DNA from: a virus
DNA length: 64,000 nt
IMG/VR virus record: IMGVR_UViG_3300022226_000002
Span: 14,934-78,933 of that record
Direction: 5' to 3' (one strand)
Under the pieces are notes generated by a model, which saw nothing but the letters and a program-made list of their open reading frames with translations, searched no databases and was not told the DNA's origin. Positions 4,858 through 7,025 of the stretch are shown in pieces. Position 1 is the stretch's first letter; every line of letters begins with the position of its first letter. A program made the position numbers and the translations under genes.

Positions 4858-5043
4858 GTGCTTCTGACAAGAGGCCATTCGGTATCATCTTTTTTATCGA
4901 CCAGAAGCACAAGTCACATTGCCACAATCACGACCACGGTCGGTATCAGGTCGGCTGTCGAACGGGCAACGTTCCCATCGGCATCATTCACGCACTCGCC
5001 GTGGCACACCTTCTTGGTCGGCATCAAGAGGGTAATCGTGCCA
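4858..5043 (-). ncRNA. TIGR-like array block 5 (units 15-18), spanning the Tas stop codon
   Basis: CGA[TTACCCTCT]TGATGCCGA[CCAAGAAGG]TG; CGA[GTGCGTGAA]TGATGCCGA[TGGGAACGT]TG; CGA[CAGCCGACC]TGATACCGA[CCGTGGTCG]TG; CGA[TAAAAAAGA]TGATACCGA[ATGGCCTCT]TG. Confidence 0.85.
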
Positions 5044-6228
5044 CCGATTCCACAAATCCCGAACAAACCGTTTCGCCGCCAGCAATTGAGCATGCCGATG
5101 AGGGTGAAGGGCGACCTCTCCCGTTCCCTTGCAGTTCTGGCATTTCTTCCGGCCAACCTTTCCCGTGCCCTCGCACTTCCCGCAGATCCACCACTCGGGA
5201 TGAGTTTCACGAGTCCGCTGCTTGGCCTCGTCGTAGCGTTTGCGGTAAGGACCCTCACCATTCTGCCGAACAATGTTCTCCTTCAGCTGCTGCATCGTGG
5301 CGTGCCGCTGAGGACTGTAGCCCGCCTCCTCCCAGTCCTCCGAGGTCAGTCCTTTCTCCAGCCTCCAGCGACTCGGCATCATCGTCTTGCCGTCCTTTGT
5401 GATCGGCGCACCGAACATCCGCCTCCACAGCTTTGCAGGATTTGGGTAATTGAAGAGATTGCCCGCTTCACCAATAATCGTCGCCAACATGCCAAGGCTG
5501 ATGCCGCGAGTTTCTGGTTCATTGAACCACGGAGCGACCGGCAGTTGTCCCGCCAAACGAACCATCTCGTCCATCAACCCATTTTCGTAATCGGCCCATG
5601 CCTTGCGGGAAATCTTAGAAACACGGACGACCCCAGCGACACGCGTGCGTTCGGTATCAACGCGCGAGTCGTCGCCAGAATCGTCCGCAGTAGCACGTGG
5701 GTGCTCGGCATCAGCGATCTCGTCGCCTTCGCCCTGGACACTGTCACCATCGCAATCAGGTGAAGACTCGTCCTCAGCGGCAAAGTCCACATCGGCATCA
5801 TCGGTAGCAACGCCACTGTCTATCTCTTTGATCAGCTTCCCCGCCTTCTTCCACAGCTTCTCCCGCTCGGCTTCCGAGGGAAGTCCCGTGTGAAAACCGC
5901 ACGCATTCCAGGCAACGAATGCGGTGATAGCGTTTTCTCCGCGGACGCTTTGCTTTAATGCAAAACGACGCTGGCGTTCCAGGGATTGGAGGGAGCGGCA
6001 GAGTGAGTCCACAAATCCATCCTCGGAATCATGCTTCAACTCACCACTCTGCCGCACCTCCTGGGCACCTGAAACTTCGGCAACAGGGCTGGCTTCGCCA
6101 TTCCCATCTCCATTGGCACGTGCGTGGTCGGTATCAACGCGCGCGTCGCCATTGCCAGCACGTAGAATCTCGGTATCAGACTCTCTGTCGCCAGCTCTTT
6201 TCTTGATTTGCCGTTTCTTGGTAGACAT
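4984..6228 (-). CDS. IS110/Nop-domain RNA-binding protein, TasA-like (no nuclease), with a CxxCxGxG zinc ribbon
   Basis: Coiled-coil helices, then RGISLGMLATIIGEAGNLFNYPNPAKLWRRMFGAP (IS110 Transposase_20/Nop-like), GYSPQRHATM, YRKRYDEAK and HRHAQLLAAKRFVRDLW. No DEDD RuvC or HNH. CGKCEGTG..CQNCKGTG. AAGGAG RBS. Confidence 0.85.
   Translation of the reverse strand: MSTKKRQIKKRAGDRESDTEILRAGNGDARVDTDHARANGDGNGEASPVAEVSGAQEVRQSGELKHDSEDGFVDSLCRSLQSLERQRRFALKQSVRGENAITAFVAWNACGFHTGLPSEAEREKLWKKAGKLIKEIDSGVATDDADVDFAAEDESSPDCDGDSVQGEGDEIADAEHPRATADDSGDDSRVDTERTRVAGVVRVSKISRKAWADYENGLMDEMVRLAGQLPVAPWFNEPETRGISLGMLATIIGEAGNLFNYPNPAKLWRRMFGAPITKDGKTMMPSRWRLEKGLTSEDWEEAGYSPQRHATMQQLKENIVRQNGEGPYRKRYDEAKQRTRETHPEWWICGKCEGTGKVGRKKCQNCKGTGEVALHPHRHAQLLAAKRFVRDLWNRWHDYPLDADQEGVPRRVRE
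5633..5818 (-). ncRNA. TIGR-like array block 4 (units 11-14), in frame inside the Tas gene
   Basis: CGT[TGCTACCGA]TGATGCCGA[TGTGGACTT]TG; CGA[GTCTTCACC]TGATTGCGA[TGGTGACAG]TG; CGA[CGAGATCGC]TGATGCCGA[GCACCCACG]TG; CGA[CTCGCGCGT]TGATACCGA[ACGCACGCG]TG. Flanks form short stems. Confidence 0.8.
6010..6194 (-). ncRNA. TIGR-like array block 3 (units 7-10), in frame in the Tas N-terminus
   Basis: CGA[CAGAGAGTC]TGATACCGA[GATTCTACG]TG; CGA[CGCGCGCGT]TGATACCGA[CCACGCACG]TG; CGA[AGCCAGCCC]TGTTGCCGA[AGTTTCAGG]TG; TGA[GTTGAAGCA]TGATTCCGA[GGATGGATT]TG. Confidence 0.8.
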
Positions 6229-6240
6229 CTCTTTCTCCTT

Positions 6241-6366
6241 AGCATGGGCTCTGTCGGTAACAACGATGATCTCGCTTCGGGCACGGCAACCTCCCTCTCG
6301 GCATCAGGGTTCGGGTCGCCATGCGTGACACAAAGGAAGTCGGTTACATTCGGGCCGTCGTCACGC
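6241..6366 (-). ncRNA. TIGR-like array block 2 (units 4-6), intergenic
   Basis: GCGTGACGA[CGGCCCGAA]TGTAACCGA[CTTCCTTTG]TGTCACGC; CGA[CCCGAACCC]TGATGCCGA[GAGGGAGGT]TG; CGA[GATCATCGT]TGTTACCGA[CAGAGCCCA]TG. Confidence 0.85.
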
Positions 6367-6888
6367 AGCATCTCGTCCTAACTGTTTCGCAATCTTCTTG
6401 AACATCGCCTCAACCTCACGTTCTTTCAGACACTCCCGGACAGTACCTCCCTTTTTCGTGGAACAAGCCTTATAGCATTCGCGACACAAAGCCGCGTTGA
6501 ACACCGAACCCGCCGCCTTCTCATCTTCCGCCTCTGCGAATGCAGGCAAGTCTTCCTTGTCGATGTCTCCCAGCAGCCAACCTGAAATCGTGTGCTCGAA
6601 TACCGATTTCCGATACACAGACTCGGCCACATCACCCAAGGCTGAAGACGCACCAACCTTCCCTGGCCCGCCATAACCACCGTTGGCCTTTCGCATCTTT
6701 CGGTTGGAAACATGCCGAGCGAAATGTATTTGCTCACGCAAGGCACGATCGACCAATTCAGCAATCCATTCCGGTAACTGCGGGATTTTCAGGCGACGCT
6801 TCACCGCCGACATCGCGCCTTCAATGTCGTCAATGTGTCGCATGGCACATTCCTGACACGCTCGCAAGACTCGTTCTTCTAAAGCCAT
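6361..6888 (-). CDS. Tas-associated hypothetical protein (175 aa)
   Basis: GGAGG RBS; MALEERVLRACQEC...; lies between array blocks 1 and 2, and its stop is inside unit 4. Confidence 0.8.
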   Translation of the reverse strand: MALEERVLRACQECAMRHIDDIEGAMSAVKRRLKIPQLPEWIAELVDRALREQIHFARHVSNRKMRKANGGYGGPGKVGASSALGDVAESVYRKSVFEHTISGWLLGDIDKEDLPAFAEAEDEKAAGSVFNAALCRECYKACSTKKGGTVRECLKEREVEAMFKKIAKQLGRDAA

Positions 6889-6905
6889 TTCATTCCTCCG
6901 TGGAA

Positions 6906-7025
6906 GACAACTGCCCTTTCGGTAACACAACATTCCTCGTCACTTGACAGGTAGGTATTCGGTAACACGAGATGCATCGTCATTTGGCGGCAGGAAAGAA
7001 ACCGTAAACATCGGAGCTCTCGCCA
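6906..7025 (-). ncRNA. TIGR-like array block 1 (units 1-3)
   Basis: CGA[GAGCTCCGA]TGTTTACGG[TTTCTTTCC]TG; TGACGA[TGCATCTCG]TGTTACCGA[ATACCTACC]TGTC; TGACGA[GGAATGTTG]TGTTACCGA[AAGGGCAGT]TGTC. Units 2 and 3 are 40 nt apart. Confidence 0.85.

Follow-up and report, generated by a model that had tools for sequence, protein, structure and literature searches.

Locus organization

The window, a stretch of 64,000 nucleotides from an uncultured 79-kb phage, contains a stem-loop TIGR array together with a nuclease-less effector, TasA. The tasA gene (4984–6228, minus strand) encodes a nuclease-less Tas protein of 414 aa with a coiled coil, a Nop/IS110-CTD-like domain and a CxxCxGxG zinc-finger insert, and a search of Pfam and PHROGs gave no family match to a nuclease (HNH, RuvC). 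We found 54 homologues of TasA; sequence searches alone did not reach the solved Tas proteins. When an AF2 model of TasA (mean pLDDT 75) was compared using Foldseek, ranks 1–10 were all TasH/TasR (9W03, 9MTY, 9W02, 21KL, 9W04, 9VZX; probability 1.00), followed by IS110 recombinases and Nop56/58, and amino acids 214–399 matched a PHROG annotated as 'transposase'. Stem-loop TIGR-TasA systems, to which the locus belongs, have been known since 2025, and intragenic guides have already been described for them.

Upstream of tasA is a partner gene (6361–6933, minus strand), listed as an ORF of 190 aa but with a likely shorter start near 6888. In over 45 related loci tblastn finds its homologues upstream of tas and co-oriented with it, and the gene had no match in Pfam or PHROG. 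Directly downstream of the cassette is terL, the large terminase subunit (2911–4815, minus strand; PHROG 5989), for which we collected 80 relatives (47–87% identity). The TIGR-TasA cassette is present in 2 of these 81 related phage loci, namely in the window phage and in one relative.

The array comprises 18 guide units (4868–7022, minus strand, which is the sense strand of the genes) with the layout CGA-A(9)-UGAUACCGA-B(9)-UG. Within a terminal stem of 6–7 bp, spacer A follows box C (CGA) and spacer B precedes box D (UG), with a 9-nt loop (UG-AUAC-CGA) between the two spacers; in every unit the ninth base of spacer A (A9) lies 9 nt after the start of the core on the plus strand, and that of spacer B (B9) 9 nt before it. 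The pattern CGA-N9-UG....CGA-N9-UG recurs in the 18 window units and in hundreds of units of relatives, always on the tas strand. Outside the box C/D pair, stem positions 1–6 are complementary in 95, 94, 84, 79, 74 and 67% of cases, and these stems, which take the place of conserved edge repeats, are variable yet palindromic with many compensatory changes. A search of Rfam gave no family, only weak miRNA-like hairpin matches. [quoted passage not shown]

The units form five blocks on the minus strand, given here from box C to box D, and 9 of the 18 are located inside coding sequence. Block 1 (6908–7022) holds units 1–3 (6991–7022, 6948–6979, 6908–6939); the loop of unit 1, UGUUUACGG, is degenerate. 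Block 2 (6243–6360) holds units 4–6 (6329–6360, 6287–6318, 6243–6274) in the intergenic stretch that separates tasA from the partner gene. Units 7–10 of block 3 (6012–6190; 6159–6190, 6117–6148, 6066–6097, 6012–6043) run in frame within the disordered TasA N-terminus (aa 1–64), which precedes the coiled coil, and units 11–14 of block 4 (5640–5812; 5781–5812, 5739–5770, 5694–5725, 5640–5671) within a disordered TasA linker (aa 143–187). Block 5 (4868–5038), with units 15–18 (5007–5038, 4967–4998, 4929–4960, 4868–4899), covers the TasA C-terminal tail and the spacer between tasA and terL. A promoter-like site (TTGACC-17-TAGATT with TG; 7128–7156, minus strand) lies upstream of the array and is followed by a 13-bp inverted repeat (7055–7116). 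This repeat resembles the 17-mer join of the unit 1 spacers (the joins are described below) over 13 contiguous nt, a match that is not significant by itself.

The ninth bases of the two spacers covary

A sequence-only reading of this DNA had reported that A9 and B9 are complementary in 15 of the 18 units, and this count was exactly reproduced (Watson–Crick pairs in 11 units and G-U in 4, leaving units 1, 4 and 5 as exceptions). Of the 81 A × B position pairs it ranks first (p = 6e-4 for Watson–Crick plus G-U, with B permuted among units); after correction for 81 pairs the signal is ~0.05, which is marginal on the window alone. Pairing of A8 with B8 is also elevated in the window (10 Watson–Crick of 18), but was rejected as there is no such signal family-wide.

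Among 572 further unique units from 64 related loci, A9:B9 was complementary in 74.5% (Watson–Crick 45%, G-U about 29–30%) and was the only complementary spacer pair, all other A × B pairs lying at 33–46% (chi-square 234, p = 2e-45). For 140 aligned units, 77.9% were paired versus 43.8 ± 4.0 after shuffling, with 0/500 shuffles as high, and slid controls gave 30–54%. In a sister clade whose boxes are CCA/UG, 67% of 216 units from 49 loci were complementary at A9:B9 (p = 7e-13).

All six canonical pair types occur at A9:B9, with G-U enriched 1.4–1.5 fold and A-C depleted. Only when the tas-sense strand is read is G-U 7–8 times commoner than A-C, which shows RNA-level selection acting on that strand; from this excess and from gene orientation, the array is probably transcribed from the tas strand. 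The pairing level (75–78%) equals that of stem positions 4–6, whereas the G-U share is about 29–30% versus about 5% in the units' own flanking stems. In the CGA clade position 9 is depleted in C and enriched in U and G, a composition unlike that of positions 1–8, and in the CCA clade G-C is as common as A-U. Compensatory changes in orthologous units (9 pairs only) were uninformative, as were units with 10-nt spacers, all of which end in U before UG.

With a borderline window signal and half of the units in coding sequence, one could ask whether chance explains the covariation, or an artefact of unit delimitation, paralogy or coding constraints. We give this a negligible probability. The pattern used to delimit units leaves position 9 unconstrained, the units were deduplicated, neither shuffled nor slid controls reproduce the signal, and its replication in about 110 loci, at the significance given above for each clade, refutes it. 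The A9:B9 covariation is not chance. The founding TIGR paper saw no obvious covariation of A and B spacers (Faure et al, 2025, Science, PMC12045711) and concluded from this that the spacers probably do not overlap, and we found no report of such covariation in the literature searched; a strong signal is therefore absent from that literature or denied in it.

Join order and spacing of near-matches

The proposal that the spacers read opposite strands and are joined as A followed by the reverse complement of B, with their 3' (box-D side) ends central, fits the published TIGR rules. We derived this order from the 8-nt 3' overhangs and the C-5 cleavage rule of the founding paper (PMC12045711), which has no explicit statement of it. 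It had also been noted that units 14 and 8 tile one sequence, and they do so over 15/15 nt at offset 2 with the 17-mer join, with no tiling for the 18-mer join. This is the sole tiling pair among 590 units, both members are intragenic paralogues encoding RVDTxxxR, and the (CG)n-rich overlap tiles also with a 2-nt gap and one mismatch; because it is low-complexity, the tiling is weak evidence for the geometry.

We tested 32 guides against the 80 TerL-related phage loci, with the spacing d between the two half-matches running from 0 to 8. Matches of at least 15/16 formed 5 groups at d=1 versus 0.64 in shuffled pairings, and 0–1 at each other d. With at most one mismatch, 17-mer joins gave 3 matches vs 0.10 and 2 vs 0.20 in shuffled controls, and 16-, 18-, 19- and 20-mer, reverse-order and same-strand joins gave 0 near-perfect matches in these loci. 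The centre base agrees in 2/4 unit groups at d=1. As for abutting 18-bp targets, the opposite-strand reading and the join order fit them, and the near-matches, in small numbers, stand at 3 for 17 bp vs 0 for 18 bp.

Searches elsewhere were null. The phage's own 79-kb genome (d=0–8) did no better than shuffled pairs, the own loci of the 64 relatives showed no enrichment by Hamming distance or by junction-spanning contiguous matches, and no spacing was enriched in 1.9 Mb of pooled tas loci and random loci. Scanning IMG/VR with unit 7 and a gap of 0–3 nt gave 21/8/15/11 matches for d=0/1/2/3, about random, and a generic 14-base pattern likewise gave random matches. Seven guides of a further locus, L281, had no exact match (d=0–3) in the 4.9-Mb Dehalococcoidia MAG that contains its contig, a candidate host. 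As for replicates in other phage families, the L140 family (33 guides, 12 loci; a small database) showed nothing at any spacing and the L129 family offered one relative only. Of the joins that the sequence-only reading had suggested comparing, the 17-mer join beats shuffled pairings in the TerL-related loci, and the other databases and genomes gave nothing. As for a 17-bp target with a 1-bp overlap, 8+1+8 is the only spacing enriched in the 80 loci, and the second family gave nothing. Resting on about two independent guide–target pairs, the 17-bp (8+1+8) reading is modestly supported.

Unit 18 and the start of terL

The best match involves unit 18 (A = UAAAAAAGA, B = AUGGCCUCU), whose 17-mer join agrees at 16/17 positions with the first 17 nt of terL in three relatives, the centre base agreeing both with A9 and with the complement of B9. 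By hand alignment, the 18-mer join agrees at 13/18. In the window phage itself, the candidate 17-bp target, the first 17 nt of its own terL (ATGGTCGCTCCTTTTTA; 4799–4815, minus strand), agrees at 14/17. This candidate target lies just behind a promoter-like TTGACC-17-CACAAT (4850–4822) and coincides with the 3' arm and T tract of a terminator-like hairpin (4841–4806). The exact unit 18 17-mer had three matches in IMG/VR, 0 of them in terL context. Unit 18 may act on the start of terL, either in related phages or in its own phage, and TasA would presumably bind such sites as a repressor. As a candidate natural target of a TIGR system, the match of unit 18 to the terL start can be put to the test.

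Interpretation

The best explanation, in our view, is that both 9-nt spacers of a unit meet at a shared central base pair in this stem-loop TIGR-TasA clade, the site being 17 bp long, a reading to which we give even chances of being right. As in published TIGR systems, spacers A and B would each pair with a different DNA strand, their 3' ends meeting at the dyad of the Tas dimer; A9 would read the bottom-strand base and B9 the top-strand base of one central pair, so that the site measures 17 bp (8+1+8) and not 18. A9 and B9 would then covary because both read that pair, the centre base probably being read by both spacers. The published geometry places A9 and B9 at the target centre. Against the 17-bp reading stand the small number of guide–target pairs, the null searches elsewhere and the 18-bp sites of solved relatives (on designed targets); nor does plain copying of targets predict the high G-U share or the depletion of C at position 9.

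The intramolecular alternative already raised in the sequence-only reading, an A9–B9 RNA pair, explains the G-U share at least as well. Here A9 and B9 would pair where the strands of a figure-eight tigRNA cross at the dimer dyad, be it in the free RNP or as a bridge between the two heteroduplexes; effective guides would be 8+8 nt, the centre base would go unread, and the covariation would be structural. Six canonical pair types with G-U enriched and A-C depleted are an RNA-pair signature, the level matches that of stem positions 4–6, and position 9 departs in composition from positions 1–8. In other Tas systems, too, some terminal bases of the spacers are not used to read DNA (the 8-bp heteroduplexes of SpTasH, the 10-nt spacers of CsTasR with 9 paired), position 9 is mostly A in the SpTasH array (spacers inspected), and the centre base disagrees in 2/4 of the d=1 groups. 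On the other hand, the sole contact would be one isolated pair, the d=1 spacing is unpredicted and a gap of exactly 1 nt must be assumed, and the centre base of the best natural match fits both A9 and B9. Nor is a preference for a weak, meltable pair general, with G-C as common as A-U in the CCA clade. We regard this pairing as possible, though rather doubtful. Ordinary abutting targets of 18 bp, with A9:B9 as a by-product (for example of unit generation or of contacts between the ninth base and the adenine of box C), seem improbable to us. The solved Tas complexes all accommodate 18-bp or gapped designed targets, and the enrichment of U and G at position 9 could reflect pairing with that adenine, but such local contacts account for composition and not for covariation, and 18-mer joins had 0 near-perfect matches vs 3 for 17-mers. 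Moreover, with abutting 18-bp sites, complementary A9 and B9 would entail a central homodinucleotide in every target, for which there is no explanation.

A more far-reaching version of the shared central pair, which we advance tentatively, is that the clade's 17-bp sites make it a natural intermediate between TIGR, without overlap, and IS110, with its 2-bp core overlap, and that its guides are aimed at the point where transcription and translation of terL begin in cassette-less related phages, the carrier being spared by the mismatches of its own terL. If true, this would be the first class of natural TIGR targets and a case of RNA-guided warfare between phages. Natural targets and biological role are standing questions of the TIGR-Tas field, and natural targets have been described as not yet determinable, partly since short spacers match falsely (Xu et al, 2026, bioRxiv 10.64898/2026.09.09.750476). 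A wrong join rule, with 18-mers in place of 17-mers, would hide the true targets of the whole clade. The covariation thus offers either a corrected target geometry for the clade or an unnoticed RNA–RNA contact at the dimer dyad, and an overlap or centre contact would alter guide design for TasA-based repressors and activators.

Comparison with known systems

The sequence-only reading had likened the spacers to the loops of IS110 bridge RNAs, and the analogy is accurate: the LTG and RTG of IS110/IS621 both include the core dinucleotide, so that the strand pairings overlap (Durrant et al, 2024, PMC11208160). On the left side of these sites it is the bottom strand that is read, by the 5' segment, and on the right the top strand, by the 3' segment (PMC11208160). 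Both systems place two guide segments in one RNA, address them to opposite strands with pairings that overlap centrally in IS110/IS621 and would do so here, and use an RNA-binding domain of related fold (Foldseek). In IS110/IS621, the pairings overlap by an invariant 2-bp core (CT), where a recombinase with a RuvC domain exchanges strands, whereas here the overlap would be 1 bp of free sequence, without a catalytic domain, donor loop or mobile-element ends. When we looked for the hallmarks of an IS110 bridge-RNA recombinase (a DEDD RuvC-like domain and a catalytic-serine CTD), there was no RuvC and the CTD was alike in fold only; no element ends were seen at the locus, which is a cassette upstream of terL.

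Dual-repeat TIGR systems (TaTasR, PDB 9MTY; SpTasH of Salicola phage CGphi29, PDB 9W04) share tandem-spacer guides, box C/D anchors and dimeric effectors, and the Salicola phage array is likewise phage-borne. Unlike the present array, dual-repeat TasR/TasH arrays have fixed 36-nt units, conserved edge repeats and nuclease domains, and in SpTasH position 9 of the spacers inspected is mostly A rather than covarying and the heteroduplexes are of 8 bp. On designed targets, the solved relatives TaTasR, PlTasA and CsTasR read 18 bp, and SpTasH 8+8 of 18.

The closest likeness is to stem-loop TIGR-TasA (PMC12045711; 10.64898/2026.09.09.750476; PlTasA, Guan et al, 2026, bioRxiv 10.64898/2026.08.11.744272), with which the locus shares a nuclease-less Tas with coiled coil and Nop-like domain, two 9-nt spacers, box C (CGA, a motif listed by TIGRFinder) and box D (UG), a 9-nt loop, variable palindromic terminal stems and phage origin. 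Arrays upstream of, downstream of and within the tas ORF, in disordered regions, are also common to both, as are opposite-strand spacers with central 3' ends (derived from the published cleavage geometry). Unlike the published stem-loop TIGR-TasA systems, for which a reading of 18 bp is described, the clade described here shows clade-wide covariation of A9 with B9 and natural near-matches that fit a 17-bp site, includes upstream of tas a partner gene of 190 aa that is conserved, and carries a zinc-finger insert in most of its members.

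Architecture of the locus

Eighteen units, all on one strand, lie within window 4858-7025 of a virus contig that measures 78.9 kb in full. Read on the minus strand, which is sense for all local genes, a unit is CGA-A(9 nt)-UGAUACCGA-B(9 nt)-UG, where A and B are its two spacers. The units are grouped as five blocks, with a block 5' of a 190-aa gene (6361-6933), a block between that gene and a 414-aa gene (4984-6228), blocks in frame in three parts of the 414-aa gene, and units between its stop codon and terL (large terminase subunit; 2911-4815). The 414-aa protein had no informative Pfam match, and its sequence matched no solved structure. 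For its AlphaFold model (pLDDT 75), however, the ten best PDB matches were all TasH/TasR complexes, followed by IS110 recombinases and Nop56/58, and the low-confidence segments (aa 1-64, 143-187 and 405-414) coincide exactly with the intragenic units. A terminal stem flanks each unit, with six positions that are 95, 94, 84, 79, 74 and 67% complementary (588 units) and many compensatory changes. Given the Tas-like predicted fold, the intragenic units in low-confidence segments and the terminal stems, the locus is a stem-loop type TIGR array with a nuclease-less TasA.

The terminal stems of these 588 units, which come from related loci, contain about 5% G-U, a share close to that of A-C. Their behaviour is that of DNA-level palindromes more than of typical RNA helices, in contrast to the ninth spacer bases (A9:B9), and this may bear on how units arise. 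Homologues of the 190-aa gene (minus strand), 25-91% identical, lie just 5' of tas and in its orientation in more than 45 related loci. The gene has no match in Pfam or PHROG; it is a conserved partner of the window's TasA clade. The cassette of array and tasA was found upstream of terL in only 1/80 TerL-related loci (L359-L438), and it therefore behaves as an accessory insert adjoining terL (window 4816-7160). In another family (L140), arrays are likewise present in only the closest two or three relatives.

Several other features were observed in the window. At 4806-4850 (minus strand), a 10-bp inverted repeat (GAGCGACCAT ... ATGGTCGCTC) and a T tract make up a terminator-like hairpin, with the region of the terL start codon as its 3' arm. 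A promoter-like TTGACC-17-CACAAT overlaps this hairpin and would yield a nearly leaderless terL mRNA; relatives share the layout whether or not they carry the cassette. The ORF listing gives one open reading frame of 4469 aa at 34799-48208 (minus strand). At 50980-52430 (minus strand), short imperfect DNA repeats (TCGGTGTCAGCGAC-like) follow one another in frame over a long stretch inside ORFs of 459 and 767 aa and probably encode a repetitive structural protein; one-mismatch matches to the unit core pattern there were spurious.

Covariation of the ninth spacer bases

The sequence-only reading had reported that A9 and B9 are complementary in most units, and its counts were reproduced exactly (11 Watson-Crick, 4 G-U; units 1, 4 and 5 unpaired). 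A9:B9 tops all 81 A x B position pairs in the 18 units, with a permutation p of 6e-4. As this is borderline once corrected, relatives were gathered by aligning 54 homologues of the 414-aa protein and collecting 160 loci from metagenomes and IMG/VR, where the unit pattern falls almost exclusively on the tas strand. Outside the window, 64 loci supplied 572 unique units, of which 74.5% have complementary A9:B9 bases (Watson-Crick 45%, G-U 30%), compared to 33-46% for the other 80 position pairs (chi-square 234, p = 2e-45); an A8:B8 excess apparent in the window was gone in this set. By pair counting in a gap-free alignment of 140 units, 77.9% were paired at A9:B9 versus 43.8 +/- 4.0 after shuffling (0/500 shuffles reached the observed value), with all six pair types, while controls with partners slid by 1-3 columns gave 30-54%. 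Distant homologues with CCA/UG boxes also showed 67% pairing (216 units, 49 loci, p = 7e-13). The covariation is thus real, and it belongs to a large TasA clade rather than to this phage alone, which confirms and much strengthens the original observation.

Search for natural targets

The order of joining proposed earlier, A then the reverse complement of B (rc(B)), is right by our own derivation: the published C-5 rule and 3' overhangs of 8 nt imply that the spacer 3' ends meet at the target centre. For every spacing d between the two halves (d=0, 16 bp; d=1, 17 bp; d=2, 18 bp), we scored how well sequences matched A1-8 and rc(B1-8); as controls, each A was joined with another unit's B. The results were negative for the phage's own genome, for the 64 relatives at their own loci, for pooled loci totalling 1.9 Mb and for one IMG/VR scan, and seven guides had no target match in a candidate host MAG. 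While checking d=1 matches of the pooled set, we noticed a match of unit 18 to the terL start in the closest relative. We then considered 80 loci with related TerL (47-87% identity; 1.09 Mb, both strands counted) and 32 guides from two carriers. At 15/16 matches or better, d=1 gave 5 groups versus 0.64 for shuffled pairings, where none of 225 shuffles exceeded 3, and the remaining spacings between 0 and 8 gave 0-1 groups each. Allowing up to one mismatch, the A1-8 + rc(B) join gave 3 hits (0.10 expected) and the A + rc(B1-8) join gave 2 (0.20), while the 18-mer join gave 0 (0.15) and the 16-, 19- and 20-mer, reverse-order and same-strand joins all gave 0. The predicted preference for 17-mer joins over 18-mer and reverse-order joins was seen, with only about two independent pairs of guide and target behind it. 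The one replicate family that could be assembled (L140), a small one, gave no matches.

For unit 18, A is UAAAAAAGA, B is AUGGCCUCU and the 17-mer join in sense orientation is ATGGCCTCTCTTTTTTA. The 17 nt that open terL match this join at 16/17 in L368/L370, which are without the cassette (ATGGCCTCTCTTTATTA), and in L359 (ATGACCTCTCTTTTTTA), at 15/17 in L365/L366 and at 14/17 in the phage itself (ATGGTCGCTCCTTTTTA), with the halves on opposite strands in TIGR order; the 18-mer join reaches only 13/18 by hand alignment. The candidate site is directly behind the promoter-like element and corresponds to the 3' arm and T tract of the terminator-like hairpin, so bound TasA would sit on the terL start. 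TasA with unit 18 may repress the terminase of relatives, or the phage's own, and the match gives a specific candidate among natural TIGR targets that can be put to the test. No exact 17/17 copy of the join was found in a terL context in IMG/VR.

Two further matches were observed. The leader carries a perfect 13-bp inverted repeat at window 7055-7116 (GGCTCCGGGAAAG / CTTTCCCGGAGCC), downstream of a promoter-like site (7156-7128), and the unit 1 17-mer join agrees with it over 13 contiguous nt, a match that alone is not significant. The 17-mer TAAAAAAGAGAGGTCAT occurs in a shared context (...catcatactATGACCTCTCTTTTTTAAACTCCC...) in about 25 prophage-like IMG/VR contigs of about 30 kb each (L452-L500), which appear unrelated to the window's phage family.

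Shared base pair or RNA contact

We consider a 17-bp site with one shared base pair to be the best single explanation, with about an even chance of being correct. The main rival, in which A9 and B9 pair directly as RNA and the centre base goes unread, is less likely. The centre base agreed in 2/4 unit groups at d=1, and in the unit 18 match the shared position 9 (T:A) fits both A9 and B9. On the tas-sense strand, A9:B9 includes 170 G-U versus 22 A-C, which indicates selection on pairing of the tas-sense RNA, and the G-U share is 29% compared to only about 5% in the flanking stems of the same units. In the clade with CGA/UG boxes, C is depleted at position 9 and the partner of G is U twice as often as C; in the CCA clade, G-C and A-U pairs are equally common. 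This composition leans slightly toward RNA-RNA contact. It is not decisive, since G-U is allowed in both models, as rG-dT/rU-dG wobble or as an RNA G-U pair.

The shared-base reading had also drawn on units 14 and 8, which do tile, 15/15 at an offset of 2, when joined as 17-mers but fail to do so as 18-mers. We give this little weight because the sequence is (CG)n, a 2-nt gap also tiles the two units with one mismatch, both encode the same peptide motif inside tasA, and they are the sole tiling pair among 590 units.

Comparison with known systems

Earlier work already describes CGA/UG boxes, a loop of 9 nt and intragenic units placed in disordered regions (PMC12045711; Xu et al. 2026 preprint), and the locus itself adds one member to a described kind. 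For the founding systems, the unwound target is 18 bp and gaps of 1-2 bp are tolerated (PMC12045711). According to the same paper, their spacers A and B do not obviously covary and hence probably do not overlap. PlTasA and CsTasR pair 9+9 nt with designed targets, whereas SpTasH pairs 8+8 nt; in the SpTasH array, as read from the phage genome, position 9 is mostly A in the spacers examined, with no covariation. Our literature search found no paper beyond those compared here that links tigRNA with spacer covariation, and none with a 17-bp target. The covariation and the proposed 17-bp geometry would set this clade apart as a variant of that kind. The analogy drawn earlier to IS110 bridge RNA is accurate: both guide segments include the core dinucleotide, and their strand pairings therefore overlap (Durrant et al., PMC11208160).
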